Source: Chiloscyllium plagiosum
Taxonomy: Eukaryota
DNA: 64,000 nucleotides
Reading direction: 5' to 3'
Assembly: GCF_004010195.1 (NCBI RefSeq)
Contig: NC_057755.1
Span: 6,059,474-6,123,473, forward strand
Under the pieces are notes generated by a model. The model did no database searches. It was not told the origin of the DNA and saw only the letters and a list, made by a program, of their open reading frames with translations. The translations under genes and the position numbers were made by a program. Positions within the stretch are counted from its first letter, which is position 1. Every line of letters starts with the position of its first letter. Shown here one piece after another: positions 1,818 through 54,647 of this stretch.

Positions 1818-1912
1818 AGAGTCCTGGTGAAAGGCTTTTGTCCGAAATGTCGATTTTCGTGCTCCTCGGATGCTGCTTGACCTGCTGTGCTTTTCCAGCA
1901 CCACTCTAATCT
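1818..1912 (+). mobile_element. Penelope-like element terminal repeat fragment with degenerate hammerhead motif
   Basis: agagtc-ctggtga-a-aggcttttgtcc-gaaatgtc-gatttt followed by ctcctcggatgctgcttgacctgctgtgcttttccagcacc, the same tail that ends the PLE at 54557-54647. Confidence 0.75.
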
Positions 1913-2212
1913 GCACTTGTCATGGAGTCATCCAGTCAGTGTCCTACAGCACGGAAAGAGGCCCTTCAACCTACACCGGACTATGCCACTCAAAAAGTCT
2001 GTCTGTACTGACCCTATTTCCCTGCACCTTGCCCACATCCTTCTTATCCTTTCCCAGCCATGGACTGCTCCAAGAGCCTTTTAAATGTTAGTACTGTAAC
2101 CGCCTCAACAAATTACGCTGGCAGCTCATTCAGTACGCCAAACTCTGTGTTGAAAAACAAAGATGCCCCTCTGGATCCCTTTCTTTCTGTCCCCTCTACC
2201 CGTAAACTGATG

Positions 2213-2468
2213 GCGAATTAATGTTGCTGGAAGAGCACAGCAGTTCAGGCAGCACCCGAGGAGCAGTAAAATCGACGTTTTGGGCAAAAGCCTTTCATCA
2301 GGAATACAGGCAGAGAGACTGAACGGTGGAGAGCCTGTATTCCTGATGAAGGGCTTTTGCCCAAACTTCGATTTTACTGCTCCTCGGATGCTGCCTGAAC
2401 TGCTGTGCTCTTCCAGCACCACTATTCCAGAATCTGGTTTCCAGCATCCGCAGTCATTGTTTTTACCT
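2213..2468. mobile_element. Palindromic PLE terminal-repeat insertion (about 90-bp inverted arms) with 10-bp TSD
   Basis: Arms 2222-2311 and 2333-2421 are near-perfect reverse complements. The insertion is flanked by the direct repeat taaactgatg at 2203-2212 and 2469-2478. Confidence 0.85.
2337..2375 (+). ncRNA. Minimal type I hammerhead ribozyme motif (mutated)
   Basis: tc-CTGATGA-a-GGGC-tttt-GCCC-(g missing)AAAC-ttc-ga. A mirror copy lies on the minus strand at about 2268-2306 (CTGATGA-a-aggc-tttt-gccc-aaaacgtc-ga). Confidence 0.7.
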
Positions 2469-6540: not shown

Positions 6541-9064
6541 TCAGTTATGATTCTGAATCAGTTTATTAATTGATATAATTGGGAATATCACAAACTTTGT
6601 TAACTGTTTTCAAAACTTGTATTTGTGCAGCAGTTCAAAACCTGTAGCATATCAACAACATTTTCAAAAATGTTTTCTGAATCTGTGTAATATTTATGAT
6701 TCTTTCGTCGAATGATGTAATATAAAAAGTGTATAACATAAGTCAGCCACAAAAGAATGAAACTGCCGGATGTTGTGAAGAGTAAAATCACAGACCTCCT
6801 TCTGCTCTCCATCCCTGGGTCACTACGACTCGTTCTCTTGCTCTGACCCATCAATCCATTTGGGACTCGACTTGCCACTAAAATGTGTCTCATTGTAAGA
6901 GCATTGAGCAACAGAATTAAAACAAATGGAAGCAATGGAGTGAAGACTTCATCAAACCAACCGAAACCCACCCATCCAGGTTGAAAAAAAGTACTCTGGT
7001 TTTACTTCACAGTACCAGGGGACATGTGCAATGATCAATCGAGGTTCAAGTATGAAGTAAATTGGAACATTTTTTAAACAGAACAGAATGCAGTCAGTCA
7101 TTACAATTCCTACTGCAGCTTTCTGTGTACAAAGGTTTGCTTTCAATGTCTGGCAACAAATGGCCACAAATCTATCAAAGGAGATAATGACAGTGAACCA
7201 TACAGAACAGTCAGTGGCTACCCTATTCACAACATTAATAACAGTGCATACTGGAGTAATATCCTGGAAAGAACCAAAGAAATAATAATAATGAATCCTC
7301 CACAGAATAATATCACTGGTAATGAATAGCAGATCTGCCGAAGCCATGGCCACCATCTAGAAAGTGGTGCACTTCGAGAGACCACACCGTCCCCGAGAGA
7401 GGATGATAATCACCACCAAATTAACTGCAAGACAGAAAGGAAAAACCGTATCTGTTACCTTAATTAGTTCTTTAGGCCAGTGAGTACGATGCAGTATTTT
7501 AGTACCAAATCCCAATTAGAATTTAAAATGCCAATCAACATCAATGTTAACAATTATCATCATGTGTTTCACATACCTCTCGATTGAGGACTACTCCATT
7601 AATTAATGATATACAGATGATTACATGGCAATTTTCACATTTGAAAGTAATTGCTGTGACTGATTTGGCTTGTCTTGTAGGCATTGCATTTAGGATGAAA
7701 CAATCTTATTAGACATTACCCAAGACAAAGAGATGACAAGGCTGAATGGGAAGCTAATAGACATTATAAGGTTCTGTGGGGCAGGGAAATGCATGAATAC
7801 GGTGAATACATTCAGTCTTTTTTCCCAGGGTTGGGTAGTCGAGGGCATTAGATAAGGTGAGATGACAAAGAATGAATGGGAATGTGAGGGGATTTTTATC
7901 ATGAAGAGTGGTAGGCATGTGGCACTCAGAAGGTGGTAGGGTACTGAAATAGACTATCTGGAATTTCAACACAAGGAAACCTCATCATCTTTAAAAAGTA
8001 CCTGGGTGACCACTTTAAATGTCCTAGCATTTTAGGCTGTGGGCAACGTTCTGGAGAGGAATTTGTGCATTAAGATGAACCCAAACATCATTCGCTCTCT
8101 GCTGTACGACTCTATGACAATGATAAATATTGTCAACAACATATTGTCATGTGGATCAAGTGTTGCTGTCTGGTGACCAAGAAACAATCTCGCTCCTAGC
8201 TCTGGTATTTACAAATTATACAATATCTAACGCTCCAACCTTATACCACAACTGAGAAAAACATTCAATTTATTCAATTTCATCCAATTTACTGAAGATA
8301 TTACTCATTGCACTCGGTAAGATATGTGTTCTCAAATTCCAATGTTTGTCATAATAAAGTACAGTTGTCACTCGTCACCGGGTTTTAAATCAATGAGCGA
8401 GAGCTGCAGATTGATTAGTATTAAATATAATGACACTGAACTATCCATACGCACAGGTCTCCTCTAGGTTTTGGGCTGATAGTTTGTAACAAAAATCTCA
8501 GAAAGTGCCTGCATGATTTCCTAAACAATATAATTCCACAGGCATAGACTTTCCCAAGACAGAAAAAAGGCAGCATGGCATTTTGCTCCTGAAATTGAAT
8601 CTTGCTCGCTTGAATTTCACACTGACCAGTACTGAAAGGAAAAAAAAACCCCTCAGAAATGTCCGTGTCCTCAGGAGCCATTTCGCCAACCCATTTCCAT
8701 AAAAGGTGATAAATTGTGAACTTCAACAAAATGTTGATCTTCATTTACTCCAATGGAATAAAACTCAAAATTCAGGAGACATTTGAAAACTAAGGAGTTT
8801 TGTATTCAGTAGCGAAATCTTAAGGTTCAACTTCAATAGGATAAAACTTAAAGTTCAGGAAACCTTTAAAACTAAGGAGCCTTAAATTCTGTAAATAAAT
8901 AAAAAGACCCTCACACGTATTTTTTTTTAAATTTAACTTGAAATATAAACGACAGATCCCCATTTATACACATATATACATCACATCAATGACTCACCAG
9001 GAACATCCAGAACAGCAAGTGATGCATAATAGATTCTCATTGCACGAATAAATGTAACAAACAT
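6541..9064 (-). pseudogene. GPR139-like class A GPCR pseudogene, copy A (exon 1 9064-8998; exon 2 7424-6541)
   Basis: Exon 1 reads MFVTFIRAMRIYYASLAVLDVP with a GTGAG donor. After a ttgcag acceptor come VNLVVIIILSRGRCGLSKCTT, AMASADL, DCSVWFTV..SFDRFVAICC, LPFVLILLLNALT, DPGMESRRRSVILL and NCCTNT. There is an in-frame stop at 7357-7359, a frameshift in the A-run near 6985 and a deletion after TM7. Confidence 0.9.
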
Positions 9065-9190: not shown

Positions 9191-12100
9191 ACATCGTCAG
9201 TGGGGCAGAAATGGTTGCTTGATGTTCCAGGGTTTAAACCGTTTAAAAAGAACAGGGAGGGTGGAAAAAGAGTGAGCATTGCAAATCAGAGAGTGCATTA
9301 AAGCTACAGAAACGAAGGTTGTTGAGGACGGTTTGTCTACTGAGTCGGTATGAGTGGAAGTTAGGAACAGCAAGGGAATAGCCACCACATTGGGGGTTTT
9401 CTACAGACCACCTAATTTCAGTAGAGAGATTGAAGATCTCACAGGCGGGCAGATTCTGGAAAAATGCAAAAGTAGCAGGGTTGTTGTTAAGGGTGATTTC
9501 AAATTTCCCAATGGCGACTGGAACCTCCGAAATGTAGAGGGTTTGGATTGAACCAATTTTGTCAGGTGTGTTCAGGAGGGTTTCCTTACTCTGTACCTCA
9601 GACTGACCGAATAGGGGAGAGGCCATTTTGGATTTGATGCTTGGCAACGAGCCATGACAGGTGTCAGATCTCGCGGTGGGAGAGCACTTTGGACAGTGAT
9701 CAAAACTGCATCACATTTAGCATAGCTTTGGAAAGTGAAAGGAGCAATTACAGAGTGACGATATTTAATTGGGGAAAAGGAAATTATAACGCTTTCAGAC
9801 AGGAGTTGGGAAGTAAAGACTGGGAGCAATTGTTCCACTGAATGGGCACAGACAACATGTGGAGACTATTTAAGGAGCAGTTGTTGCGAGTGATGCACAA
9901 ATTTGTTCCTCTGAGGCAGGTAATGTGAGAGTATGATTGACGAGATTAAGATTACGGTAAGTCACGGATAGTAGTGGGAAAGTGTGTGTGGAGTCAGAGG
10001 ACATATGGGAAGCACTAAATGCACTTTTCGACAGTATTCACTCTAGAAAACGACATGTCGTCGAGGAGACTACTGAGATACAGACTACTAGACTTGGTGG
10101 AATTGAGGGTCACAAGGAAGAGGTATTCGAAATCCCGCAGAGTGAGAAAATAGAAAACTCCCCTGGGCAGGATGGGATTTATCGTAGGATCATCTGGGAA
10201 TTCAGGGAGGAGATTGCCGAGCCTTTGACATTGATCTTTAAATCGTTATTGTCTACAGGAATAGTGCCAAAAGATTGGAAGATAGCAAATGTGTTTCCCC
10301 TGTTCAAGAAGGGGAGTAGAGACAGCCCTGATAATTATAGACCAGTGACTCTTACTTCAATTGTTGGTAAAGAGTTGGTAAAGCTCATAAGAGATACGAT
10401 TTATAATCATCTAGAAAAGAATAAATTGATTAGGGATATGCAGCATGGTTTTGTGAAGGGTAGGTCGTGCCTCACAAAACCTATTGAGTTATTTGAGAAG
10501 GTGATCAAACAGGTAGATGAGAGTAAACCGATTGATGTGGTGTATATGGATTTCAGCAAGGCATTCGATAAGGTTCGCCATAGTCGGCTACTGTAAAAAA
10601 TGCAGAGGAATGGGATTATGGGATTTATAGCATTTTGGATCAGTAATTGCCTTGCTGAAAGAAGACAGAGGATGGTGGTTGATGGAAAATGTTCATTCTG
10701 GAGTGAGGTTGTCAGTGGTGTACCGTGATGGTCGGTGTTGCGTCCACTGCTGTTCGTCATTTTTATACACGACCTGGATGAGAGTGTAGGAGGGTGGGTT
10801 AGTAAATTTGCCGGTGAGACTAAGGTCGTTGGAGTTATGGGTAGTGACGAAGGATGTTGTAGGTTACAGAGAGACATAGAAGTGCTGCAGAGCTGGGCTG
10901 AGAGGTGGCAAATGGAGTTTAATGCGGACAAGTGTGAGGTGATTCACTTTGGCTGGAGTAACCAGAATGCAAAGCACCGGGCTAATGAAAAGATTCTTGG
11001 AAGTTTAGATGAGCAGAGAAATCTCGGTATTCAGGTACACAGATCCTTGAAAGTTGCCACCCAGGTTGACAGGGTTGTAAAGAAGGCATACAGTGTATTA
11101 GCTTTTATTAGTAGAGGGATCGATTTTCGGAATCATGAGGTTATGCTACAGCTGTACAAAATTCTGATGCGGCCGCACTTGGAGTATTGTGTACAGTTCT
11201 GGTCACCACATTATAAGAAGGATGTGGAAGCTTTGGAAATGGTGCAGCAGAGATTTACTGGGGTGTTGCCTCGTATGGAGGGAAGGTCCTACGAGGAAAG
11301 GCTTATGGACTTGAGGCTGATTTCGTTGGAGAGAAGAAGGTTGAGAGATGACTTAATAAAGACATATAAGATCATCAGAGGGTGAGATACGGTGGCCAGG
11401 GAGAGCCTTTTTCCAAGTATGGTGACGGTGAGCACGAGGGGGCATAGTTTTAAATTGAGGGGTGATAGATATAGGACAGATGTCAGAGGTAGTTTCTTTA
11501 CTCAGAGAATAGTAAGGGTGTGGAATGCTTTGCCTGCAATTATAGTAGATTCGCCAATTTTAAGTGCATTTAAGTCGTCATTGTACAAACATATGGACGT
11601 ACATGGAACAGCATAGGTTAGACGGACTTCAGATTGGTATGAATGGTTGGCGCAACATCGAGAGCCAAGGGGCCTGTACTGCGCTGCAATGTTCTATGTT
11701 CTAAGAGGTAAGATTAAGGAACGTTGGATGACGAGAACAGTGGAATTTCTAGTCAAAAGGAAGAAGGCAGCTTAGGTAAGGTGGAGGATGCAAGGATCTA
11801 GCACAGCTTTAGAGACTTACAGGCTTGTTGGAAAGGAGCTCAGAACTGAACTGAGGAGAGCCAGGAGGGGGCACGAAAAAGGCTTTGCAAGAAGAATTAA
11901 GGAGAACCCAAAGGCGTTTTACTCATACATGAGGAAAAAGAAAATGATCAGGAAGAAGGTAAGGCCGATCAGAGATAGCGGGGGGAACTTGTGTGTCGAG
12001 TCTGAGCAGATAAGGAAAGCTCTAAATGAGTTTTTGCTTCGGTTTCCACCAAGGTAAGGGAACTTGTTATATATTAAAACTTAGAGGAGCTGGGATACAG

Positions 12101-13730
12101 TCTTGACCAGATCAAGTTTGATGAAGCTGATGTGCTGGAAATTGTGGAAAACATTAAAATTGATAAGTCCCCAGGACTAGACCAGATTTATCCTAGGCAG
12201 CTCCGGGAAGCGAGAAAGGAGGTTGCTAAGCCGCTCGCGAGGATATTGGCCTCCTCACTCTCCATGGGTGTGGTACCGGAGGATTGGATGGAGGCGAATG
12301 TGGTTCCTCTTTTCAAAAAGGGTAACAGGGAAAGAATTGGTAACTACAGATCAGTCAGTCTTACGTCTGTGATCAGCAAAGTTTTGGAAAGAATTCTGAG
12401 GGATAGGATTTATGACTATTTGGCAAAGCACAGTGTGATTAAAGGCAGTCAGCACGGCTTTGTGAGGAGCAGGTCATGCCTCACAAATATTATTGAGTTC
12501 TTTGAGGAGGTGTTAAGACAGGTCGACGATGGTAGAGCCGTGAATGTGGTGTATATGGATTTCAGCAAGGCATTTGATCGGGTTCCCCATGGAAGCCTCA
12601 TTCGTAAAGTCAGGAAGTATGGGATACAGGGAGATTTGGCTATCTGGATTCAGAATTGGCTGGCTGTCAGAAGGCAGAGAGTGGTTGTAGATGGGAAGTA
12701 TTCTGCCTGGAAGACAGTGTTGAGTGGGGTCCAGCAGGGTTCTGTACTTGGGTGTCTGCTCTTTGTAGTTTTTATAAATGACTTGGAAGAGGGTTCGAGG
12801 GGTGCGTTAGTAAATTTACAGATGACACAAATGTTGGAGGTGTTGTCGATAGTACAGAGGGCTACTGCAGACTGCAGCGCGACATAGACAGAATGCAGAG
12901 CGGCTGAGAAATGGCAGATGGAGTTCGACCGGGATAAATGCGAATTGACGCATTTTGGAAGGTCGAACTCGAATGCTGAAGGTAGGATTGAAGACAGGAT
13001 TCTTGGCAGCGTGGAGAAACAGAGGGATCTGGGTGTGCAAGTAAATAGATTCCTCAAAGTTGCCACCCAAACGGATAGGGTTCTTTAGAAAGCATATGGT
13101 GTTTAGGTTTTCATTAACGGGGGATAGAGTTTAAGAGCCGTGAGATATTGCTGTAGCTCTACAAGTCGCCGGTGAGGCCACACTTGGAATATTGTGTCCA
13201 GTTCTGGTTGCCTGGTTGCCTACTATAGGAAATATACAGAGGTTTGGAGAGGGTGCAAAGAAGGTTTACCACGATGCTGCCTGGACTGGAGGGCTTCCCT
13301 TATGAAGAAAGGTTGAATAGGCTTGGACTTTACTCTCTGGAGAGAAGGAGGAAGAGAGGAGACGTTATAGAGGTGTCCAAAATAATGAGAGGAATAGATA
13401 GAGTCAATAGCTAGAGACGTTTCCGCAGGGAAGGATTGAAAGTTAGGAGAAGTCATAGAATGAAGATATTGGGAGGAAGGTATAAAGGAGACGTCAGACT
13501 TAGTTTTTTTTTACACAGAGAGTTGTGAATGCATGGAATGTGTTACCAGCGGTGGTGGTGGAAGCAGAGTCATTGGTGACATGTAAGCGACTGCTGGACT
13601 TACACATGGATGGCAGTGAGTTAAGGGAGCATAGATTGTTACTATATTTTACAGTAGAAATAAATCTCGGCACAACATCGTGGGCCAAAGGGCCTGTTCT
13701 GTACTGTACTTTGCTATGTTCAATGTTCTA
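9191..13730 (+). mobile_element. CR1 LINE (APE + RT), 5'-truncated, split by a nested CR1
   Basis: APE motifs (LGVFYRPPN, GDFKFP) at 9191-9923. The reading resumes in frame at 11705 (PLRQV|RGKIKERWMT) and includes RT motifs (QHGF, VYMDFSKAFD) and a tgttcaatgttcta tail. Confidence 0.9.
9924..11702 (+). mobile_element. CR1 LINE nested inside another CR1
   Basis: ORFs 9982-10596 and 10735-11385 give RT motifs (NYRPVTLTS, QHGFVKGRSC, YMDFSKAFD, LEYCVQFWSP). It has its own aatgttctatgttct tail and a possible short TSD, taa. Confidence 0.9.
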
Positions 13731-13960: not shown

Positions 13961-14480
13961 TCCTCCCCTATCAGCTTTCCGTAGAGACCACTCCCTCCGC
14001 GACTCCCNNNNNNNNNNNNNNNNNNNNNNNNNNNNNNNNNNNNNNNNNNNNNNNNNNNNNNNNNNNNNNNNNNNNNNNNNNNNNNNNNNNNNNNNNNNNN
14101 NNNNNNNNNNNNNNNNNNNNNNNNNNNNNNNNNNNNNNNNNNNNNNNNNNNNNNNNNNNNNNNNNNNNNNNNNNNNNNNNNNNNNNNNNNNNNNNNNNNN
14201 NNNNNNNNNNNNNNNNNNNNNNNNNNNNNNNNNNNNNNNNNNNNNNNNNNNNNNNNNNNNNNNNNNNNNNNNNNNNNNNNNNNNNNNNNNNNNNNNNNNN
14301 NNNNNNNNNNNNNNNNNNNNNNNNNNNNNNNNNNNNNNNNNNNNNNNNNNNNNNNNNNNNNNNNNNNNNNNNNNNNNNNNNNNNNNNNNNNNNNNNNNNN
14401 NNNCTGACCTGCTGTGCTGTTCCAGCAATAAAGTTTCAACTTTGATCTCCAGCATCTGCAGACCTCACTTTCCCCTCCTA
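13961..14480 (+). mobile_element. 5'-truncated Penelope-like element spanning an assembly gap, 12-bp TSD
   Basis: PPLSAFRRDHSLRDS lies before the N-run (14008-14403) and the PLE tail ctgacctgctgtgctgttccagc follows it. TSD atatgatagcta at 13949-13960 and 14481-14492. Absent from the paralogous site near 6040. Confidence 0.85.
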
Positions 14481-17704: not shown

Positions 17705-19319
17705 GTTTCCATTCAAAGTTACTGTCCCTCAGTGCATTCAGAACTTCTCTGCATCAAATACCGAGTTATGACAATCACCGACACTTTAATTTGTACCAGG
17801 TTTGCACTTCGAGGGAATTCTGAAATTACAAAATCTTCAAATTAAATTTACAAAAGCACAAATTAACGCAGCTACAACTGCAAGTTGACTCGCTGTTGTG
17901 CTAAAGTATATTTAGCATTTGGCGTCACGAATATAATTTGGCTGATCATATTTAGCTCATGCATCAATGTTAATGTTGTTTTTCAGAAAGTGGTGTTTGC
18001 TGAAAAACACAAGCATTTTGCATTCATGCTGTCATAATTTTCTGAAGTTTGTTGTTACCCTTCAGTAGTTAACATCCAAGTATGAGCTCATCTTGCTCAG
18101 GGTTTCTGCCCAGCCCTCTGCGATGTGACTATGCTTGTGAATGTGTGCTTTTTCAATCAACTTATTGATTACATTTAAATAGATAATTGAGTTCCAATAT
18201 GCACCTCGATACCTTATTTTGGCATTGTTCAAATTTAGGATTTGAGATGACCCATTGTGCAACCTGGGTTTGCTTATCATTCTGAATACAATTTTAAACA
18301 GCATTGGGCATGTTGAAATTGAACTTAAAAACGAAAATGGGAGCTCATTGAATTCCCACTCTACTCAGTAACCTTACATCTGACTGAATACTGAGAGGAA
18401 ATCTGACTGACCTGTTCTGCAGGTCCTGAGAGAAACTGCACAAGGGTGAAATATACTTGGCATTGTTTCCATTAATTCTGTGACATGATTCACCAAGTAA
18501 TGATTATTATCTCAGTAAATATGGAAGCAGCTCTATTCCTCTGTATCAATGTCACGACCTCAGCAATGCTTCCTGCTTCTGTAAACCTAACCAGCAGATG
18601 CAACCCGCCCTGATCTGTCAAACACATGCACTCTCAATCTCTGGCTGATTGTTTCTTCTTCACCATTTTCTTCACAATTGGTCCATTCATCATCTATATT
18701 AGTGCACAGAGATGTTCACTCAATAACCTTCATATTATACACAACTGCTCAGTTTTAACTTCTTTTCACTTCACCTGAGGAAGTACTTCGACAGCTTATT
18801 ATTTCAAATAAGCCTATTGGACCATAACCTGTGTCGCAAGATTTCAGACTTCGTTATATTTCAAGGCAGCATTGTGTTCATAATTAACCTTTGTATCTTT
18901 GATTATAATAGTTATTATAAGGTGCTGGAGGAACTCGGTAGATATGGCAGCATCTGTGTAGACAGAAACAAACTGAACATTTCCAGTCTTGCGATGAGCA
19001 TGCAGGTGCTGTAAAACATAGAACCGTCGGAAATAGATGCAGGACTTGGCCATTCCTGCCACCTATGTGGGAAGAGTGCTCATACTGTTGGGGGAGTCCG
19101 AAACTGCGAGGTCACAGTCCGAGAATAAGGGACAAACCATTAAGGACTGAAGGATCATACCCGATCATGCATTCCCAATTTCACATTCACACATTGTCTC
19201 CATACCAGTTGATACTGTGAATGACAATAGCCACGTGCAGCTTTCTCCAGATGAAGGAACTGAGAGCAAAAGCAGAAGTGATTATGTTGCAGCTTTCTCA
19301 AGAGGTGGTGAAGGCACAC

Positions 19320-20544: not shown

Positions 20545-20940
20545 AAACTGTAGCTCGTTTTGGAGGAATTTTACTTTATCTCCTGCCTGGGCATCCTACA
20601 GCCCTGAAGACTAAAAATGGGTTTAGCCAAATTGAAGTAACTTCCCTTCCCATCCCCTAACTCCCTTCCCAGTCCCTCCAGGTCCCTTCTATGGCTCCCT
20701 GCAACCAACTGGATTCATTTCTTACGTTGTCCAACCAGATTGTACCATTTACCTGACTTCAGGGATCCCCACTTCACAACACTGATCACACTGCCCCCTT
20801 TATCTGCAGCTCCTCCTACACCTATTCCCAATCCTGATGTAAGGTTAAACCCAAAAAGTCGACTTCTGCACTTCCTGACTTGCTGCCTGACTTGCTGTGT
20901 TCTTCCAGCATCCTGCCTATCAACTCTGTCGGACACATGT
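20545..20940 (+). mobile_element. Penelope-like element 3' end with degenerate hammerhead motif (20830-20865)
   Basis: Remnant of the C-terminal LG.LQP motif, a pyrimidine-rich UTR, then aatc-ctgatgt-aaggttaaaccc-aaaaagtc-gact and the ctgcctgacttgctgtgttcttccagc tail. Confidence 0.6.
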
Positions 20941-20944: not shown

Positions 20945-21260
20945 ATCCATGCCCAGTCCAATATGAGCTGAAAGCCTGCAGCAATGGAGAGAAGCAAGGC
21001 AACCTAAAGATGCAGAACAGACGAAGTCCGTCATATTTCTTATCAGCATCTCTGCTCGATTGATACTTCTATGGTTGATATTTCGCATTTTCTTTTCGTT
21101 ACACCTTTGGAAAAGCATGTTAAACAGAGTCTTAAATGATTTTGCAAAGTTTTGGATTCATGTAATGGAATTTGAATTGCTGTCAAATACAATTATTTAT
21201 ACAGCAGCTCAGGCTAAGTTCAGGGAGAAAATTAAGTATAGTTGGAAATCGCTGGTTTAA
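20945..21260 (+). pseudogene. GPR139-like GPCR pseudogene fragment, copy C (ICL3 to C-terminus)
   Basis: LKACSNGEKQGNLKMQNRR, then a frameshift, then SVIFLISISARLILLWL...NTIIYTAAQAKFREKIK, homologous to copies A and B. Confidence 0.8.
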
Positions 21261-25685: not shown

Positions 25686-25815
25686 TAGCCCTGATGAAGG
25701 ACCTGTGTCAAAAATGTCGACTTTCCTGCTCCTCAGATGCTACCTGACCTGCGGTGCTATTTCAGCCCCAATCTAATCTTGAATGTGTTCGCCAGCATCG
25801 ACAGTACTCAGTTTT
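25686..25815 (+). mobile_element. PLE terminal repeat fragment with hammerhead motif
   Basis: agcc-CTGATGA-a-GGAC-ctgt-GTCA-aaaatgtc-gact followed by ttcctgctcctcagatgctacctgacctgc. Confidence 0.7.
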
Positions 25816-26244
25816 GCCACATATTAGTCAAACTTTCTGTTCTGTTCTGTTGCATTTTTCTTTTTATATGGTTATCATTGTGCAGATGTTGAAAATAAAT
25901 AGTCAATTTTTCATGAAGATTCATGGCTTTCACTGACCTATAATGCTTTTTGTAAAGTAGACTCATTTCCTTGACAGAAGTAACGGGTGAAAATGAATAG
26001 TGTAAAGAAAGGAGGCCAAGCAAGAAATATTGAAGTTGCACGGAGTGTGGCTGGTTCACAAGCAGACATGACCTGACCCAACCTTTGCAACAATTGCCAC
26101 CATGGGCTAATTCTGCAACTTGTGCAAGAAAATGCGATGGCTCATTCTGCTCCATTTCATAGAGAAATTAAGTGAGAACTGGAAGTAGATTCAGTGAATA
26201 CCAATTAAGTCATGTCTTTTTCAAAAGAGTGGTCATAGCTTCTT

Positions 26245-27649: not shown

Positions 27650-27980
27650 GAGATAATGTCATAAATATAGTGTTTGGCATGTGTTACTTCACCAAACTGA
27701 TAAGTGAGTATAAAAGTTGCCAAATCCTGTGACAGCTGTATAAAACTTGAACTGAGTCACATTTCGAGAAATGTGTGCAGTTCTCGTGAATAAATGTGGC
27801 CTTGGGCAGTGTGCAAAATAGGTTGGTCCGCATTGGTGTGCATGAGCTTTAAGGAGCGATTAACAAAATTGGATTGTTTACCCGAAAGCACCGGAGGCTG
27901 TGGAGAGTCTTGATGGAAGTATATAAAATTATGGCGCATGGATAGAGTGAAAGGTCGGCGGCAACCTTTTCAGAGCTGAA
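27650..27980 (+). mobile_element. CR1 LINE fragment
   Basis: Degenerate QILxQLYKT...SHFEKCVQF and LMEVYKIMAHG motifs. Confidence 0.65.
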
Positions 27981-28060
27981 AATGTGTTGCTGGAAAAGCG
28001 CAGCAGGTCAGGCTGTGTCCACGGAGCAGGAGAATCGACGTTTCGGGCATGAGCCCTTCT
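27981..28060 (-). mobile_element. PLE terminal repeat fragment (right half of hammerhead intact)
   Basis: The reverse complement reads agaagggctcatgccc-GAAACGTC-gattctcctgctcc...cctgacctgctgcgcttttccagcaacac. Confidence 0.8.
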
Positions 28061-28067
28061 CCCCAAC

Positions 28068-31650: not shown

Positions 31651-31689
31651 TGGTTTGTGGGCAACTATGACTTCTTGATGTCTGTGTGC

Positions 31690-35941: not shown

Positions 35942-36021
35942 GTAGTCGTGGCCACGTGGTTTAGGCGAATACGAGTAGTAATTCATTGGGGTCTACGCAG
36001 GTTCGAATCCCGCCGAATGCA
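35942..36021 (+). tRNA. tRNA-Ser(AGA)-derived pseudogene/retrocopy
   Basis: gtagtcgtggcc..gtggtt.aggcga...tag.aa..cattggggtct..cgcaggttcgaatcc.gccga follows the vertebrate tRNA-Ser sequence (GTAGTCGTGGCCGAGTGGTTAAGGCG...GCAGGTTCGAATCCTGCCGACTAC). The anticodon arm is damaged. Confidence 0.8.
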
Positions 36022-45087: not shown

Positions 45088-47068
45088 TGTGCCTGAGACA
45101 GAATGAAACACTCAACAATCTTTCAAGTAGTGTGAATGTACTAGCCAATACTTGCGCTGTTGGCATTATTGGTAAGTCCTTGAGTCCAGTTATACTTGTG
45201 CAAAACGTTTTTTTAAAACTCTACACCATCATTCTTTGTGGAAATTTGACATGGTTTCAATGTCTTTGGTTATTTTCAAACTTTGCGTTTCTCGTTGTTT
45301 CACCAGTAGTTGATTTTTACTATTGTTCCCTTCCGTCTGCTGAAGCAGGTTGAATTATGAATGCTTTACACATAATTTAGTTCGAATACAGAACAGGCTG
45401 AGTCAGCATTTATTCTCCATGTGGAGCTTCACTTCAGAAGGCGGTGGATAGATGCCTTCTTAAACCACTGCAGACCAATTGGTCTAAGAGCATTACGAAG
45501 CACAGAAACAGAACCTTCGGTCTAACTCGTCCATGCCTTACACGTTTCCTGAATTGAACTTCTCTCTTTTTTTGCCTGTGTCCTGCTACAAACATTCTCT
45601 CCATGTAACTGTAAAAATGTCTTTTAAATGAACCAGCAAAACTGAAGGATCAGCGATGTGTTTCCAACCTACGAAGGTGAGTGGCTTGAAGGGTATTTGA
45701 ATTTTTCACCACATCTACTGTAATTGAGTTAATATATTAATCTGAGGCAATTGTTGCGAGTTAGCAGGCATGCATTGTGGCTCAATGATAAGCACTGCTG
45801 CCTCACAATGTAAGGTACCTGTCTTCAATTGCACCATCAGGTGACTGTCGGTGTGGAGTTTGCACATTTTATCCATGTGCGCGTGAATAGTGAATTGGTC
45901 ATACAAAATGTCCCATAGTGTTCAGGTATGTGTACGTAAGCTGCATTATTCAGGGAAAATGCAAAGTGACAGGATAGGGGAATGGGTTTGGTTTGAATAC
46001 TGTTTGGAGTGTCAATGTGTATGTGTTGGGCCAATTGGCCTGTTTCTACACTGTACATGTTCTATGTTAAGCTAATGTTTTTGCTGTGACTCTGATCACG
46101 AAGAGGACTCTCTTTCTTTATTTTTTGTCCAGTTAACTCCATGGCAATTGTGATCCTAATTCGAGGCAAGTGTGGAATTATGGGCTCTCTAAATGCGTTA
46201 CTCGGTATTTGTTGGCAACGACTTTTGCACATCGAGTTCTCTTCATCCTTAATATCTTACTGGACCGAGTTAACGTTCTGCATTTCCCGGTTAATTTCTT
46301 AACCATCACATCTTTGTTTGCCTTGAGAACTGTTGTGTTTCTTGCAGATCTATATGGGTCAGTTTCGTTCACAGTTGACTTCACATTTGGTCTGTTTGTA
46401 CTGATATGTTGCCAGAAACCACGAGCAAGATATTGTCACGATGAAACTATTTTTGTCGTTATAACAACTCCGGATGCCGTAGGCTGTTGTGATGAAGTAC
46501 TTCGTATTTTGTATTTTTCCCTGCGATTATTTTTGACAACGTACCGTCGGTTTTACATGATATTACCGGACTTTTATACATCATTATTTTGGAAAATGTG
46601 TGTATGGATAGACACCACATTTATACCGTTTCTTCCAATTATATTGATTTTGGTATTCAATGCTCTGCCTCTTAGGCACGTAATAGAAGCCAACCACATC
46701 CGCTCTCGCCTCCAGAGCCATGGAAATGGAGGGAATATACTGATCCAGAGGTGGCAAACTGGAGAAAATCCATCATCTTGCTCTTTGCATTGTCTGATCA
46801 TTTTATATTCCTCTGGATGACACATTTCATACGCCAATTCAGCTTTCAAAAAATAAGTTATAAGTATGATGTCAAGATTTTAAATGCTCCAACACTTGTC
46901 TGGCAAGAAATTGGATTCCTGCTACGTTTTCTGAATTCGTGCAACAGTATCTGCATTTATGCTCTTACACAGACTAAATTCAGAGAAGAGTTAATCACTG
47001 GAATAAAATATCCATTTACTCGGCTTGTTAAGATATGCAATCAGAATGCACGTCTGACGTCTCTTTGA
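45088..47068 (+). pseudogene. GPR139-like GPCR pseudogene, copy E (exon 1 ends 45171; exon 2 46133-47068)
   Basis: Exon 1 remnant Y*PILA/AVGII with a GTAAGT donor at 45172. After a tttgtccag acceptor come VNSMAIVILIRGKCG (frameshift) LSKCVTRYLLA, PFLPIILILVFNAL, RKSIILLFALS and NSCNSICIYALTQTKFREEL. The DRF motif is lost. The start position is approximate. Confidence 0.85.
45765..46070 (+). mobile_element. HE1/V-SINE-like SINE in the GPCR intron
   Basis: gtggctcaatgataagcactgctgcctcaca...gtgtggagtttgcacatt...ggcctgtttctacactgta. Confidence 0.75.
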
Positions 47069-48493
47069 AAATATATTTTCAGACATAAGTAGGATCTCTA
47101 CTTTGAAACGGCTTGAAGAACTTCCCCTGGCTGCATTAAATGAGAAGAATTCTATCTCCTACTAATTGGAAAGTAGCCACTTCGCCACTCAAATAGGACA
47201 ACATCCATTGTGCAAACAAAAAAACAGAGTTAGAACAATATTTCATGGGTGTCTGTCAAGGATGTTGCTGGTCAAAAGGCTGAGTCTTTGCTTTTGTGTT
47301 TCATGTTGAGACGTTTTGCAATTCCTGATGTATTTCAAGCTTTCGATTTTCTTATGAATAAGGTTATGTTATTGTGTTGAAAGGTCAGTGGCAGCCTCAT
47401 GTGAATATATTCTGTGGCTAACTACCACAGTGTGTCTTGAAAGAAAAGTCTGAAAATCTTCAAAACTGCTTTAAAACTGAGATCTGATTTCACCGGTATT
47501 ATTAGCAGCTGGCACCACCACATATGACTCTTTATTGTTATTTTCTTCTGTTTAATTCTGGCAAATTATGTACATCGTACAGTGGATGGTCACTGATCTC
47601 ACGTGATTTGAACAGATCCCTGAACATTGAGACTCAACACCAATATTCATTGTGAAAGAAATACTGAGCACGAGCACTATTTCTGAAGAAAATTCTTGAC
47701 CACTGAGATGCATTATGAAGGAAATCCTGAACCGGCCATCATGTGTTGAAGTAGAAGTATACAAAATGCATGATCTCCTTTGCTCAGTGGTTTAGTGCAT
47801 GATAAACGCATTGACTTACTCCCCACCGGTTATTAACTGAACCATTTGATAATTGGAACAGAAGGAATTTTCAAGTCACTGTCTCAAGTATTTCCTCTAT
47901 AGAAAAGTATGTGTGAAATTAGGTGACTCCGTGAAACATTGAGTAGGTGGTTATTAGACAACCAATAATAAAAAAAGAGGCCACATGGCCCATCAAAAGT
48001 GATCCACAGTTCAATAAGATCATGTCTGGTCTAACAATCTTCAACTTCACCTTCGTGCCAAGTCCCTGTAATGTTTGATTCCCCCACTGATCAAGAATCA
48101 GTCTCTCTCAGCCTTAAATATGCACAACGATTCTACCACCACCCCCCTCCCCACACAAACACAGCTGAGACATGAAGTTCCATAACTCATAAGCCGCTGA
48201 GGGAAGAAATTCCTACTCATCTCAATCTGAAATTGACACCCATTAATCCACTTGCCTGCATCAAGCAGCCCACTTGATTTCCACTGCATCTACAAACTTG
48301 CAGCTCCTCCTCCACCAACGGTCAGTTGCAGTTGTGTGTACCAGAGAGAAGATGCACTGAAAAAAAAGACATTTATCCTTCGGCAGCACCTTGCAAAACC
48401 ACAACCAATTTCATCCCAGACAACACATAAATGGGATCGCAATCCCCTTCAATGTTCCCTCCAATTCACTCACACGATCGAGCCCTCCAATTC

Positions 48494-48528
48494 CACCTGA
48501 TGAAGGAGCGTCGCTCAGAAAGCTAGTG
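48494..48528 (+). ncRNA. Minimal type I hammerhead ribozyme motif, second family
   Basis: cac-CTGATGA-ag-GAGC-gtc-GCTC-a-GAAA-gc-TA-gtg, with stem I cac/gtg and stem II gagc/gctc. It is followed by a repeat tail (aaacctgttggacta...) that also appears, degenerate, at about 18770-18850. Confidence 0.7.
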
Positions 48529-49287
48529 TGTTTCCAATTAAACCTGTTGGACTACTACCTGGTGTTGTGCGATTTTTAACTTTGTACACGCCAGTCCAAC
48601 ACCGGCATCTCCAAATCAAGTATAGGTAGAAAACGACACAGATGCACAGAAACTGAATGAGACGGGAACAGAAAGAGTTAAACAGAATGCAATACTGACA
48701 AACACAAATAGGAAAAGATAAGGAGAGGAAATGTTTGACCATTTACAACTCAACAACTGGCTGCAACAGAGAAATGTATATATCCCAGTTTTGTTTCAAT
48801 GCTGGTTATCATTTGAACAAACAAAGCAACACCATTAATGTTGGCATAATACAACACTCACATTCTTGTTGCTAATTAACGTAATCACAAATGTCATTTG
48901 GAGTCTCAGTCCTAAATATATCTTTCTTTCCCCAAGAACTGGATTAATTCATTTGTCTATTACAACAAATTACAAAGTGATGATGATTTAACTTCCTTTT
49001 TAAAAATTAGACGTGTCAGTTCAGCGTATATTACAGAGAGGCTGATCAAAGCCCAAAGTAGCTCCGGAAAATGCAATGAAGATGTTCGAAACATTTAACA
49101 ATGTCAGGAAATTTTACTACATGATTACGGCCAGCATTGGTGTTCCGGTTAAGTGAAAACTTTTTTTTTGTTATTTTTGAGTGGACATTAGACTGAAACC
49201 TGTGACTGATCATGCTACATGAACATCTTCTGATCACATAATCGTAACAATGTATTTTTCCATCAACAAACTGCATTATCTCCAGTT

Positions 49288-51956
49288 CATAGAACATAGA
49301 ACATTTACAGCGCAGTACAGGCCCTTCGGCCCTCGATGTTGCGCCGACCTGTCATACCAATCTGAAGCCCAACTAACCTACACTGTTCCATATACATCCA
49401 CAAGCTTGTCCAATGACGAATTAAATGTACTTAAAGTTGGCGAATCTACTACCATTGCAGGCAAAGCATTCCATAGCCTTATTACTCTCTGAGTAAAGAA
49501 ACTACTTCTGACATCTGTCCTATATCTATCACCCCTCAATTTAAAGCTCTGCCCCCTCGTTCTCACTGTCACCATACTTGGAAAAAGGCTCTCCCTGTCC
49601 ACCCTATCTAACCTTCTGATTATCTTATATGTCTCGATTAGGTCACCTCTCAACCGCCTTCTCTCTAACGAAATCAGCCTCAAGGCTCTCATCCTTTCCA
49701 CATTAGACCTTCCCTCCATACCAGGCAACATCCTAGCAAATCTTCTCTGCACCCTTTCCAAAGCTTCCACATCGTTCTTACAATGTGGTGACCAGAACAG
49801 TACACAATACTCCAAGTGCAGCAGCAACAGAGTTTTGTAAAGCTGTAGCATAATCTCATGGTTCTAGAACTCAGCCCCTCTATTAATAAAAGGTATGCCT
49901 TCTGCATAACCCTGTCAACCAGGATGGCAACTTTCAAGGATCTGTGTACCGGACACCGAGATCTCACTGCTCATCTACGCTACCAAGAATCTTACAATTA
50001 GCGCAGTACTTTGCATTCCGCTTACTCTGACCAAAGTGAATCACCTCACATTTTGCCGCATTAAACTCAATTTGCCACTTCTCAGCCCATCTCTACAGCT
50101 TATCTATGTCTCTCTGTAACCTAGAACATCCTTCGTCACTATCCACAACTCCAACGACCTTAGTGTCGTCTGCAAATTTACTAACCCTCCCTTCTACGTC
50201 CTCATCCAGGTCGTTTATAAAAATGACAAACACCAGTGGACACACCTCCGACCCTTGCGATACACCACTCGTAACTGTGCTCCAGAATGAACATTTCCCA
50301 TCAACTACCATCCTCTGTCTTCTTTCAGCAAGCCAATAACTGATCCAAACTGCTTTATCTCCCACAATCGCATTCTTACACATTTTGACCAAAAGCCTAC
50401 GTATCGAACGCTTTGCTGAAATCCATATACACTACATCAACCAATTTACTCTCATCTACCTGTTTGGTCACCTTCTCAAAGAACTCAATATGGTTTGTGA
50501 GGCACTACCTACCCTTCACAAAACCGTGCTGACTATACCTAATCAATTTATTCTTTTCCCCATGTTTATAAATCCGATCTCTTCTAACATTTTCCAACAC
50601 TTCACCAACAACTGAAGTACGGCTCACTGGTCTATAATTACCATGGTTGTCTCTAATCCCCTTCTTGAACTTGGGAACCACATTTGTTATCCTCCAGTCT
50701 TCTCGCACTATTCATGTAGACAACGACGATTTAATGATCAATGCCAAAAGCTCAGCAACCTCCTCCCTGGTTTCCCAGAGGATCCTAGGATAAATCCCAT
50801 CGGGCCTAGGGGACTTATCGATTTTCACACCATGCAGGATTTCTAATATCTCCTCCTTGTGAACCTCAACCACATCTAGTCTAGTAGCGTGCATCTCAGT
50901 ATTCTCCTCGACAACATTGTCGTTTCCTACAGTGAATGCTGTCGAAAAACATTCGTTAACTGCTTCCCCACGTCCTATGACTCCACACACAACTTCCCAC
51001 TACTATCATTGATTGGCCCTAATCTTACTCTCGTAATTCTTTTATTCCTTAAATACCCTAAGAGAGCCTTAGGGCTTCCCCTGATCCTATCCGCCAAAAA
51101 CTTCTCATGTCCACTCCTGGCTCTTCTGAGCTCTCTCTTTAGGACTTTCCTGGTTACCTTGTATCCCTCAAGCGCCCTAAATGAGCCTTCACATCTCATC
51201 CTAACATAAGCATTCTTCTTCCTCTTGACCAGAGATTCCGTTCCTTCGTAAACCATGGCTCCCGTGTTCTACAGCTGCCTCCCTGCCTGACAGGTACATA
51301 CTTATCTAGGACACACAGGATCTTTTCCTTGATTCCTCTTGACCAGAGAATCCGTTCCTTCGTAAACCATGGCTCCCGTGTTCTACAGCTTCCTCCCTGC
51401 CTGACAGGTACATACTTATCTAGGACACACAGGATCGTTTCCTTGAATGAGCTCCACATTTCTAATGTGCCCATCCCCTGCAGTTTCCTTCCTCATCCTA
51501 TGCTTCCTCAATCTTGCCTAATTACATCGTAATTGCCTTTCCCCCGGCTGCAACACTTGCCCAGTAGTATACATCTTTCCCTTTCTACCACTAAAGAAAA
51601 CTTAACAGAATTGTGATCGCTATCACCAAAGTGCTCACCTACTTCCAAGTCTAACACTTGGCAGGACTCATTACCCAGTTCCAAACCTAATGTGGCTTTG
51701 CCTATGTTGGCCTGTCTACATAGTATGTCAGGAAGCCCTCTTGCACGCTCTGGACAAAAACCTTACTCATCCATAGTACTCGTACTATAGTATTCCCAGT
51801 CAATATTTGGAAAGTTGAAGTCCCCCATGTCAACTACCCTGCTCTCTCACTCCTATCAAGAATCATCTTTGCTGTCCTTTCCTCTACATCTCTGGAACTA
51901 GTCGGAGGCCTATAGAAAACACCAAACAGGGTGACCTCTCATTTCCTGTTTCTAAC
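49288..51956 (-). mobile_element. CR1 LINE (APE + RT), 5'-truncated, with a 114-bp internal tandem duplication
   Basis: Minus-strand ORFs give FINDLDEDVEGRVSKFADDTK, NYRPVSRTS and LEYCVLFWSP; catagaacatagaaca tail. Confidence 0.92.
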
Positions 51957-52617
51957 AGTAATTTATTCCATCTTCAGAACTAAGGAGAATCGTGGTTTAT
52001 AATTCTCACTGAAATGTTATGGAGGATATTGTCTTTCTGGAACACCAATGAAGTTGAACATGACATCATTCCGGCAAGTCGCAGAATTCCTGGAGTATGA
52101 GGACTATTGCACAGTGCAAATTTGAATTGGGTATTAACAATATCTGCAGCCAATAATCTGGTCCCAGGTTAGCATGTCCAATAGTGAGTACCTGTCAGTG
52201 TAATCGCTTGTGATCCCGTCACGTGGAAGCTGTGGCATTTCCACATGCACCGCTTGCTACCTGGTGGCCTTGGAAATGGCAGATTTATTTGTGCTTAGTA
52301 TTGGAATTATCCCTTTGTGGGTCTGTTCATATTATTTCCCTGGGTCTTTCGTGGATATCACGCACATCAGTTGTGTTACCTCTTCCCTGCAGTCTGCTGC
52401 CATGAACTGCTTCTGTCTGATTCACTGTCACTTTTTCCAATGACCAGTTTGTGGCCATTTGTTGCCAGGAGCTGAAAAGAAAATATTGCACTATGAAAAC
52501 TGCAGCTGCTGTTCTAGTGGCAAACTGTATGCTGCTCTGTATAAGAAACACCCTACAAGTCTTTATTTATAAACCTGGGATGATGATTGATCATATATCT
52601 TGGCTTTGTGTTGTAAA

Positions 52618-54647
52618 CCTATGGCCCCTTGACAATGACCCCACCCCCCACCACCAAACCAGCATCTCCTCGACCATCCATAACCTCATCACCTCATGGG
52701 ATCTCCCATCCACTGCCTCCAAATTCATAGTCCCAGAACCCTGCTCCGCCCATTTCTACCTCCTGCCCAAAATTCACAAACCCAACTGCCCCGGCCGACC
52801 CATTTTCTCAGCCTGCTTCTGCCCCACCGAACTCATCTCTGCATACCTCGACACTGCCCTGACCCCTTAGTCCAAGAACTCCCAAACTATGCTCGGGACA
52901 CCACCCACGCCCTCCACCTCCTCCATGATGTTTGCTTCTCCGGCCCCCAATGCCTTATCTTCACGATGGACATCCAGTCCCTATACACTTCCATCCGACA
53001 TTCAGAAGGCCTGCTTCTTCCTCTCCCGCCGACCCAACCAGTACACTTCCACTGACACCCTCCTTCGACTGACTGAATGGTCCTCACTCTTAACAACTTC
53101 TCCTTCCAATTATCCCACTTCCTCTAAACCAAAGGAGTAGCTATGTGCACCCACATGGGCCCCAGCTATGCGTGCCTCTTCGTCGGATACGTGGACGACT
53201 AACTCCGCCCCCATGCCTAACTACGCCTCCACTCCTAGTTCCAGCCCCACACTAGGTCTTAGCTCCCAGCCCTGCCGTATTTTCAACATCCCTCCAGACC
53301 TCTCTCACTCTGAGGGTTAATGATCAGTCCTCAGCAGAGGCCTCACCTTTATCCCCGTGCGCCCTGATCAATGAGTTCGACATGCGGTTAGACATCGAGC
53401 ATTTCTTCCGCCGCCTTCACTGCTGCACCTACTTCTGCAATAAGGACTCTCGCCCACCCTCTGTAGACCACTTCTCCCGCCTCCAAAACACCCCATCCAC
53501 CTGGACACCCCGTGATGGCCCCTTACCCGCCCTCGATCTCTTCATATCCAACTGCCACATGGACACTTACTGCCTCAACTTGTCCACCCCTCACACCCAC
53601 TCTAACTTCTAACCCTCACAACGCGCAGCCCTCCACTCCCTCCGCTCCAACCCCAACTTCACCATCAAACCAGCAGACAAGGGATGCGCAGTGGTAGTTT
53701 GGCGCACCGATCTTTATATCGCTGAAGCGAGATACCAACTCACGGACACTTCCTCCGACTGCCCCCTTAACCATGACCCCATGTCCCGGCACCAAACCAT
53801 CATCTCCTAGACCATCCATAATCTCATCACCTCAGGGGATCTCCCATCCACCGCCTCCAACTTCATAGTCCCATAACCCCGCACCGCTCGTTTCTACCTC
53901 CTGCCCAAAATCCACCGCATCTCCTCAACTTCCCGCACCTCCGCCCGTAAACCCCGACCCTCCAATCGCCACCAGGACAGAACCCCACTGGCCCTCACCT
54001 TCCACCCCACCAACCTCCAGACACATCGTATCATCCTCCGTCATTTCCGCCATCTCTAAACAGACCTCACCAACAGGATATATTTCCCTCCCCACCCCTA
54101 TCAGCGTTCCGGAGAGACCACTCCCTCTGCGACTCCCTCATCAGGTCCACAGCCCCACCAACCCAACCTCCACTCCTGGCACCTTTCCCTGCAACCGCAA
54201 GAAGGGCAAAACTTGCGCCCACACCTCCCCCTCATCTCCCTCCAAGGCCCCGTTGGATCCTTCCATATCCTTTGCAAATTCACCTGCACTTCCACACGCA
54301 TCATTTACCGTTTCTGCTGCAGACGATGTGGTCTCCTATACATTGGGGAGACAGGCCGCCTACTTGCAGAACGTTTCAGGGAATACCTCTGGGACACCAC
54401 ACCAACCAAACCAACCGCCCTGAGGCTGAACACATTAATTCCCCCTCCCACTCCGCAAGGATATGCAAGTCAATGGCCTCCTCCATCGCCAGACCCTGGC
54501 CACACGACGCCTGGAGGAAGAGCACCTCATCTTCCGCCTAGGTACCCTCCAACCACCTGAAGAAGGGCTTATGCCCAAAATGTCGATTCTCCTGCTCCTC
54601 GGATGCTGCCTGAAACTGCTGCGCTTTTCCAGCACCACACTTTTCAA
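52618..54647 (+). mobile_element. Penelope-like retroelement (Neptune-type RT, Cys linker, GIY-YIG), rearranged, 14-bp TSD
   Basis: FYLLPKIHKPNCPGRPI, LIFTMDIQSLYTSI, KGVAM.THMGPSYACLF, IKPADKG, GTFPCNRKK.KTC and CGLLYIGETGRLLAERFRE. Terminal repeat with a hammerhead-like motif at 54557. TSD ctttgtgttgtaaa at 52604-52617 and 54648-54661. Confidence 0.92.
54552..54590 (+). ncRNA. Minimal type I hammerhead ribozyme motif at the PLE 3' terminus (mutated)
   Basis: CTGAAGA-a-GGGC-ttat-GCCC-aaaa-tg-TC-gattct. The G12 and stem III changes are consistent with CpG decay of GAAACGTC. Confidence 0.7.

Follow-up and report, generated by a model that had tools for sequence, protein, structure and literature searches.

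Minimal hammerhead ribozymes carried by the terminal repeats (pLTRs) of Penelope-like elements (PLEs) were reported in 2014 to number thousands per genome, dispersed and for the most part occurring singly, with descriptor counts of ~4,000 in coelacanth and ~9,000 in Xenopus given in the consulted passages of that report (Cervera and de la Pena, 2014, PMC4209133). In PAc, a Poseidon element of the green anole, the ribozyme is protein-assisted and dispensable for insertion, which mainly uses unprocessed RNA as its template (PMC11167929). No dedicated description of Penelope hammerheads in cartilaginous fish was found in the literature searched.

Here, we analysed a 64,000-nt stretch of DNA from a cartilaginous fish (the window), whose hammerhead-like sites share with the ribozymes of metazoan PLEs, as described in the consulted passages of PMC4209133, (i) a type I topology with no loop on helix III, (ii) a palindrome at 15.1-16.1, an extra base between positions 9 and 10.1, a G10.1-C11.1 pair and a short helix I and (iii) the presence of several families per genome, with copies mostly single and dispersed. 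They differ in their host, cartilaginous fish being unnamed in those passages (shark and skate terms are also absent from two supplementary files of the same report), in a copy density that appears much higher, in a helix II of 4-5 bp rather than the 7-8 bp of schistosome families and in a dominant family with a U-U mismatch in helix I. The associated reading frame resembles Neptune/Nematis-type endonuclease-bearing PLEs in its single ORF with reverse transcriptase (RT) followed by GIY-YIG, DKG motif, cysteine linker (in relatives), 5′ truncation, inverted pLTR and target duplications (PMC8557442), although the copy in the window is scrambled and dead, and the likeness is one of features rather than of phylogenetic placement. 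As in PAc (PMC11167929), the pLTR houses the ribozyme, inserted copies extend across the cut site, which an unprocessed template would predict, and no RNA ends were seen at that site in RNA-seq; PAc, however, belongs to a different clade and has an ORF that begins inside the ribozyme. Animal non-LTR retrozymes, in the consulted parts of their descriptions (10.64898/2026.07.22.740005; PMC7229834), are likewise short, non-coding and pLTR-related, with a type I hammerhead and dispersed monomers, but they are defined by tandem units that each have an intact ribozyme. The families seen here may overlap those of 10.64898/2026.07.22.740005, which, as far as consulted, includes one cartilaginous fish.

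The sites in the window (Table 1) are very probably mutated pLTR copies of endonuclease-bearing Penelope-like retrotransposons bearing a minimal type I hammerhead motif for which cutting is predicted in the dimer only; they are likely to be inactive leftovers of insertion. This agrees with an earlier note on this DNA, which had recognised minimal type I hammerheads of Penelope-like termini, and it extends a known type of retroelement ribozyme to cartilaginous fish.

Table 1. Hammerhead-like sites and associated features in the window.
Feature	Position	Strand	Remarks
Family A solo terminal-repeat piece	1822..1912	+	Core from 1824; predicted cut after 1851; defects A6G, G10.1A, C15.2U
Family A, left arm of head-to-head inverted pair	2219..2311	-	Core from 2301; defects G10.1A, G12A
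Family A, right arm of inverted pair	2333..2456	+	Core from 2343; second box minus one base; palindrome broken
Second ORF-linked family A insertion	13961..14480	+	ORF piece 13962-14007, N gap 14008-14403, tail 14404-14480
Family B relic	18768..18854	+	First box at 18775; helix II collapsed
Weak relic, A-like tail, decayed second box	18921..18990 (approximate)	-	E 0.0024 against family A profile
Family A subfamily copy	20640..20922 (left end approximate)	+	Core at 20834; defects A9U, G10.1A, G12A, C15.2A
Family A solo piece	25689..25817	+	Core at 25691; defects C11.1A, G12A, C15.2U
Family A copy cut within first core box	27971..28061	-	Helix II, second box and palindrome intact
Family B copy	48472..48612 (left end approximate)	+	Core at 48497, all core bases; AGCU palindrome; CUA triplet; 3-bp helix I
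Target duplication, left copy	52604..52617	+	Exact 14 bp; 0/300 null
Dead, scrambled Penelope-like reading frame	52618..54555	+	Residues ~239-434, then 49-290, then 575-793 of 803-aa relative
Family A ribozyme motif and tail	54556..54647	+	Fused directly to ORF end; core at 54557; defects G12A, C15.2U
Target duplication, right copy	54648..54661	+	14 bp, exact pair; 0/300 null

The earlier note had listed at least seven copies, plus a half copy and a relic, at about one per 8 kb, and the census bears this out, with nine hammerhead-like sites at those positions (one per ~7-8 kb). Seven of these (1824+, 2301-, 2343+, 20834+, 25691+, 54557+ and the 5′-cut copy at ~28060-) form one repeat family, family A, with 77-94% pairwise identity; the other two (48497+ and the relic at 18775+) form family B, and a tenth family A tail sits behind an assembly gap. 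Not all family A copies are independent, since 2301 and 2343 are the two arms of one inverted duplication, which are 93.5% identical and fold as a single hairpin (-173 kcal/mol). CTGANGA alone is at chance level in the window (44 observed, 44.25 expected), whereas a composite hammerhead descriptor allowing up to two defects finds four sites against a shuffle mean of 0.28, a number reached in 0/60 shuffles. No site is defect-free by this descriptor, as the earlier note had said of every copy: 48497 has one defect, the remaining copies have at least two or fall outside the descriptor, and an intact core with paired helices I and II is absent in 9/9. An Rfam search of the window returned nine matches at E ≤10, with no hammerhead among them, and folding energies of monomers and dimers did not separate the window copies from intact relatives.

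Several traits nevertheless recur. An extra unpaired A between positions 9 and 10.1, after the first box, is present in 9/9 window copies and 10/10 relatives. The G10.1-C11.1 pair, retained in only three of the seven family A copies and broken at 48497, where C11.1A disrupts the base of helix II, is found in 10/10 relatives and has no alternative among the rows listed from public sequencing runs. Helix III is reduced to a self-complementary 4-mer that differs between families, as previously noted, with self-duplex energies of -3.1 kcal/mol for ACGU, -4.5 for AGCU and +1.2 for AUGU mutants. Many of the mutations are, again as claimed, of CpG type, with CpG columns differing in 10 of 47 instances versus 36 of 414 elsewhere (six of the seven family A copies, 20834 being left out). 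The core diverges less (1/56) than the tail (23/258), but this was discarded as evidence because the copies had been located through their core in the first place and the count omits 20834.

Family A is the terminal repeat of a Penelope-like retroelement, on the sense strand beside an ORF with RT and GIY-YIG. It is joined to such a frame (tblastn) in two insertions with target duplications, 52618-54647 and 13961-14480. In the first, the motif at 54557 abuts ORF 52618..54555, confirming the suggestion that one copy lies directly at the end of an RT + GIY-YIG element. This frame has RT, then a C-terminal GIY-YIG, and a DKG motif, with Pfam scores below curated cut-offs (E 0.0085 for the weak GIY-YIG match); it is broken and has neither the YIDD region nor the 3′ UTR. 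The protein that matches it best, like the nearest relatives of that protein, comes from sharks and rays and has RT and GIY-YIG motifs. A CX2-5CxxC linker precedes the endonuclease in four of five relatives examined (the fifth ends before it) and is one cysteine short in the window copy. Receptor-gene paralogues near 15283-15649 and 6839-7211, which are uninterrupted, run collinear with the flanks of insertion 52604..54661. The second ORF-linked insertion, absent from the earlier note, has an exact 12-bp target duplication (13949-13960/14481-14492; 0/300 null), and its N gap covers the position of the ribozyme. Among nine sites tested for target duplications, these two are exact beyond all 300 nulls, one reaches 1% of null (the direct repeat 2200-2212/2466-2478, a 12/13 match lying 6-10 nt outside the inverted-pair arms) and six are not significant, including the weak candidates at 1822..1912 (1811-1823/1917-1929, 9% of null as good) and 25689..25817 (25679-25688/25818-25827, 9/10 match, 11% of null). 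Target duplication, 5′ truncation and inverted pLTR, all traits of endonuclease-bearing PLEs, are seen here.

The same motif plan occurs in invertebrate relatives of the reading frame, on the sense strand and within 1 kb downstream of the ORF in 14 of 39 loci, 13 of these at 89-135 nt downstream, whereas only one antisense motif and none inside the ORF were found in the same 39 loci. The strict descriptor had no match in the remaining 25, of which a looser scan recovers six. Pairing is less clear-cut. The earlier note had claimed covariation visible within the window, but in family A only one pair is changed on both sides (in helix II of 25691), which is equalled by 225/500 shuffles; MAFFT misplaces 20834, for which alignment by eye yields a second double change (C-G to U-A). 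Nor does helix I differ while staying paired, as had been proposed, its third pair being unpaired in 4/7 family A rows and its 5′ arm lost in the 28060 and 54557 copies. At 1824, the 'gagtc' arm may be duplicated target DNA, as it matches downstream DNA at 11/13 positions, a score equalled by 9% of random pairs. Across families (17 motifs), 39 cells change on both sides versus 13.3 when shuffled, with 0/500 shuffles reaching this value, although the test is partly circular since its 11 relatives were picked by a descriptor demanding paired stems or core; the strand and position control is free of that circularity. These data bear on whether the motif might be a chance look-alike in an ordinary repeat family, multiplied by copying. 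CTGANGA at chance frequency, the lack of a hammerhead in Rfam and the homology of the copies, which are therefore not independent trials, speak for this reading, but it is very improbable, since related ORFs are followed, in a constant position and on a constant strand, by motifs that share core, extra A, G10.1-C11.1 and palindrome while their paired stems differ, and family B shares the plan despite an unrelated tail.

What the family looks like beyond the window was assessed in 4 of 24 matching public runs, for family A only, read against the 54557 copy. G12 accounts for 71%, 66% and 68% of contig depth in three organisms and 874/1298 RNA reads, C15.2 for 65%, 70% and 69% and 1147/1380 RNA reads, and the first core box is restored by loose ends; among the rows listed, those differing over 54557-54588 do so only at 54577 and 54581. 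The majority form reads CUGAUGA-A, 4-bp helix II, GAAA and ACGU palindrome with no loop. The earlier note had staked its claim on a consensus with CUGANGA/GAAA, and this stands, with G12 in the majority in 4/4 runs and ACGU in three organisms. Helix I of this majority (AUUC versus GAUU) consists of two pairs, a U-U mismatch and one pair, weaker than the 3-4 pairs of most relatives, so the majority form may itself be a poor cutter. Contig records on one 381-nt stretch range from 23,193 to 37,570 per run, and the copy number looks very large, although contig depth is not copy number. Exact tail patterns had no match in viral, metagenome and prokaryotic contigs.

Could some copies serve the host as functional ribozymes in the processing of read-through or receptor-gene transcripts? 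Family A sequence does occur in the RNA run (1775/12,955,460 records, both orientations) and 48497 keeps every core base. However, none of the nine copies is defect-free, none lies close to an intact partner on its own strand, the two nearest copies are opposite in orientation and fold as one long hairpin, and G12 is no commoner in RNA (67%) than in DNA (66-71%). We give this reading next to no chance, and the copies in the window probably have no function. The RNA run has no end pile-up and even depth across the cut site, which carries little weight, the library being a single-cell poly(A) one of which ~2% was read; a run search gave no RNA runs among listed holders of the 381-nt stretch.

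Rather than self-cleaving RNA families that have themselves spread, as the earlier note had it, the hammerhead pieces look like passengers on retroelement ends. Each extends across the cut site, which suggests that the reverse-transcription template would be uncleaved (or re-ligated) RNA. Where an element is intact and in tandem, its transcript would contain two copies that pair via the palindrome and cut after GUC, a reaction that may be weak or aided by the element's protein. Reverse transcription by this protein would begin 60-150 nt 3′ of the cut site and usually end early, littering the genome with short ribozyme-bearing ends, in which methylated CpGs at C11.1-G12, palindrome and cut site would then decay fast.

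A different origin for the short copies has to be weighed, namely that they are a separate non-autonomous element of ~90-150 bp (SINE-like or a non-LTR retrozyme), with its own RNA, a start immediately upstream of the ribozyme and mobilisation by the Penelope protein. Upstream similarity is lost within ~10 nt of the first core box in four of seven family A insertion events (two of these four depend on weak target duplications), and a fifth is cut inside the box; no such sharp 5′ boundary was seen in invertebrate relatives, whose extra pLTRs extend well upstream of the ribozyme in five of the seven copies with a close family match (in the other two, upstream likeness is seen by eye past an indel). 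Of the 12 back-joints listed (the best 12 of 26) into 54555-54558, 11 have ≤10 letters, mostly ending in ATT, and 5, 5 and 3 contigs contain head-to-tail joints with a period of 89 nt, but insertion into an older copy, cut at ATT, would explain the joints just as well (PMC11167929), and no joint, as the abundant small circular RNA of a retrozyme would give, is listed for the RNA run, whose library is poly(A)-selected. Depth over the motif is ~7, 3 and 7 times that of the best ORF-end bin, although contig depth gives no copy number, a 3′-end excess is already predicted by 5′ truncation alone (PMC8969392) and one tail may be common to several ORF subfamilies. Retrozymes are pLTR derivatives, according to the consulted part of 10.64898/2026.07.22.740005, yet the window has neither head-to-tail pairs nor tandem units with intact type I hammerheads, tandem joints are only few in public contigs, and 3′ ends differ from copy to copy. 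We therefore regard a separate element as decidedly unlikely.

A related but unlikely idea is that most copies are unit-length insertions from a fixed point (CATT) just before the ribozyme, making them a very abundant, Penelope-mobilised SINE-like shark element. Its whole body would then be an uncleaved hammerhead plus a reverse-transcription start site, and the weakened helix I would stop the template from cutting itself. The CATT presumably resembles a transcription initiator. Its ATT also matches the preference of the anole element's endonuclease (PMC11167929). If true, the purpose of the Penelope ribozyme would be testable by junction mapping in one genome. A copy population of this kind is useful for studying where Penelope elements begin and end their reverse transcription, and whether the ribozyme matters for jumping, which is still unclear (PMC8557442).

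Family B is likely, judging from its architecture, to be the end of a second Penelope-like element. Its tail is unrelated to that of family A (score 23, with shuffles up to 39), and the tail of the relic at 18775 alone identifies it, with a score of 49.5 against 39.5 for the next best of 2112 windows. With 120 related proteins (tblastn, E 1e-3), no frame was matched near 48497 or 18775, an outcome that solo ends would also give. In family A, the 20834 copy has ~200 nt of pyrimidine-rich sequence upstream, and the weak relic at ~18921-18990, on the minus strand and absent from the earlier note, is possibly a third family.

The feature is real, was correctly recognised and is of a kind described in 2014. 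All nine hammerhead-like sites named in the earlier note are present in the window, a stretch of animal DNA rich in repeats and interrupted by a single 396-base gap, and they belong to two unrelated repeat families, seven sites to family A (a minimal type I hammerhead in the terminal repeat, or pLTR, of a Penelope-like retroelement, PLE) and two to family B. In the window, CTGANGA on its own occurs at chance frequency (44 found, 44.25 expected); the full descriptor with up to two defects finds four sites versus 0.28 in shuffles, none of 60 of which reaches four. It yields no defect-free site, in keeping with the claim that every copy has at least one core or stem mutation, and the window copies are decayed. 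An Rfam search of the window (E up to 10) gave nine matches, no hammerhead among them. Since the 2301 and 2343 copies are arms of one inversion, they count as one event and no same-strand dimer is possible between them. The inverted pair (2200-2478) would fold into a hairpin of ~90 bp with a 23-nt centre, and a read-through transcript would be long double-stranded RNA. By eye, a short motif is common to 20976-20997 and 28078-28098, near the 20834 and 28060 copies, and the regions around these copies may be old paralogues.

Hammerhead-like sites, Penelope-like insertions and neighbouring features (window positions)
Feature	Position	Strand	Basis or remark
Family A sites	1824, 2343, 20834, 25691, 54557	+	
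Family A sites	2301, ~28060	-	
2301 and 2343 copies			the two arms of a head-to-head inversion (93.5% identity), folding into one -173 kcal/mol hairpin
Tenth family A tail	14404-14480	+	behind assembly gap
Weak relic	~18921-18990	-	similarity search
Family B sites	48497, 18775 (relic)	+	
PLE insertion 1	52618-54647	+	exact 14-bp target duplication at both ends
PLE insertion 2	13961-14480	+	exact 12-bp duplication; ORF piece joined to family A tail across gap
Broken single-exon rhodopsin-family receptor gene 1	6600-7356	-	Pfam 7tm_1
Broken receptor gene 2	15283-15861	-	Pfam 7tm_1
Broken receptor gene 3	46130-47070	+	by eye
Broken receptor gene 4	52250-52617 plus 54662-54900	+	blastn; split by PLE insertion
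LINE-type reverse transcriptase fragments	9961-12887, 49290-52000	both	several copies; Pfam RVT_1
tRNA-like stretch	35942-36021	+	Rfam 22.3 bits, below the 29-bit threshold

That the motif is carried by PLE termini holds for family A, with two bounded ORF-linked insertions in the window and further cases among 88 loci encoding protein relatives. Of these, 43 reach the ORF end, 39 with at least 300 nt beyond, and in these 39 the motif lies on the sense strand in 14, on the antisense strand in one and never within the ORF, a looser scan adding six. For family B, neither copy of which has a PLE ORF near it in the window, an origin as a PLE end is likely by its architecture. Eight of the PLE ORFs (L081-L088) come from a single assembly titled as a bacterial MAG, most likely animal DNA binned into it.

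PLE insertion 1 breaks a receptor-like gene; paralogues that lack the insertion and match Pfam 7tm_1 are collinear with both of its flanks. The reading frame of the insertion is broken, and its pieces do not follow their normal order: they correspond to residues ~239-434, then 49-290, then 575-793 of a relative of 803 aa, and the YIDD region is absent. For its endonuclease piece (54060-54557) the only longer protein match is a Chiloscyllium punctatum protein whose best relatives are in sharks and rays, then in marine invertebrates, which makes a cartilaginous fish the very likely host. In public reads, the ORF usually runs on beyond 54556 and a different sequence usually sits before the ribozyme, so the 54557 copy lacks both the 3' UTR and the helix I 5' arm. 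In two of the organisms sampled, contigs join the tail to the flank seen in the window, and the insertion is therefore common to them. Within this one insertion an ORF stretch is present twice (52622-52777 and 53760-53915), the two being only 87% identical, as if reverse transcription had switched from the RNA of one element to that of a different one.

The earlier note overstated covariation within the window. In family A it is not significant: a single pair has a double change, a count reached in 225 of 500 shuffles (20834 is mis-registered in this alignment, and setting it right by eye would add one further double change). Covariation shows up only across families, where 11 related-locus motifs and six window copies give 39 cells changed on both sides versus 13.3 when shuffled (0/500 shuffles). 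That test has some circularity, since a descriptor served to pick out the relatives. As for helix I, said to differ while staying paired, its third pair is unpaired in four of the seven family A rows; a subfamily with G-C there is indicated by the copies at 20834 and 25691. The dominant form in public reads sets an AUUC 5' arm against GAUU (54553-54556 / 54585-54588), a U-U mismatch at this pair. The 5' arm is missing at 28060 as at 54557, and at 1824 may be duplicated target DNA (11/13 match, a score reached by 9% of nulls).

Core position G12 is retained in only two of the seven family A window copies, so that the window majority alone would fail the core test of the earlier note (a consensus with CUGANGA and GAAA). 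In public reads the core is intact in the family A majority. Four of the 24 public runs listed for the stretch, three of DNA (three organisms) and one of RNA, were mapped on 54380-54760. The core base G12 makes up 71%, 66% and 68% of the contig depth and 874/1298 of the RNA reads, C15.2 65%, 70% and 69% and 1147/1380, shares that are likely lower bounds (the reference bears the mutant letters), and loose read ends bring back a complete first core box (CUGANGA). Each DNA run has 23,193 to 37,570 contig records on these 381 nt, a measure of great abundance, not of copy number. The RNA run places 1775 of 12,955,460 records there; they occur in either orientation and their ends do not pile up, which says little on cleavage for one single-cell poly(A) library of which ~2% was read. 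Public contigs also contain joints that lead, head to tail, from several points of the tail to the ribozyme start, mostly via ATT (54556-54644). Elsewhere in these genomes there may be short tandem ribozyme pairs, candidates for dimers.

As helix III lacks a loop, a single copy is unable to close it; its 4-mer is self-complementary. Monomers of such motifs do not cleave and dimers do so weakly, according to PMC4209133 and the review PMC6765202, and since no copy in the window has an intact same-strand partner, ribozyme activity of these copies is unlikely. All span the cut site, and each would therefore have been copied from uncleaved or re-ligated RNA. For an anole element, PMC11167929 describes a ribozyme that requires the element's protein and is dispensable for insertion, and reverse transcription that starts internally, on unprocessed RNA.

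Short pieces would arise by early termination of reverse transcription. It is doubtful that they are instead unit-length elements, the 5' junction just before the first core box marking either where the RNA starts or where the endonuclease cuts, a reading favoured by several window 5' junctions and by 11 of 12 back-joints among those listed from public contigs, which fall there. The CATT at this junction presumably resembles a transcription initiator. An internal promoter with an initiator is described for Penelope (PMC2377424), and inverted and solo pLTRs are described too (PMC3846280, PMC8557442). However, plain truncation alone predicts a surplus of 3' ends (PMC8969392), the joints are possibly insertions into older copies, and in invertebrate relatives extra pLTRs run well upstream. 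Of the CpGs there are three, at G12, at the helix III palindrome and at the cut site, and differences are found in 10/47 cases in CpG columns versus 36/414 elsewhere (six of the seven family A copies, without 20834), in line with decay driven by methylation. Retrozymes are reported in one cartilaginous fish (10.64898/2026.07.22.740005); literature searches pairing Penelope with sharks brought up nothing on this subject, judged by their listings.

The four broken receptor genes form a cluster, and two of them sit in a ~8.4-kb duplication. The LINE-type fragments are of a kind that we take to be CR1, and the tRNA-like stretch is possibly a SINE head.
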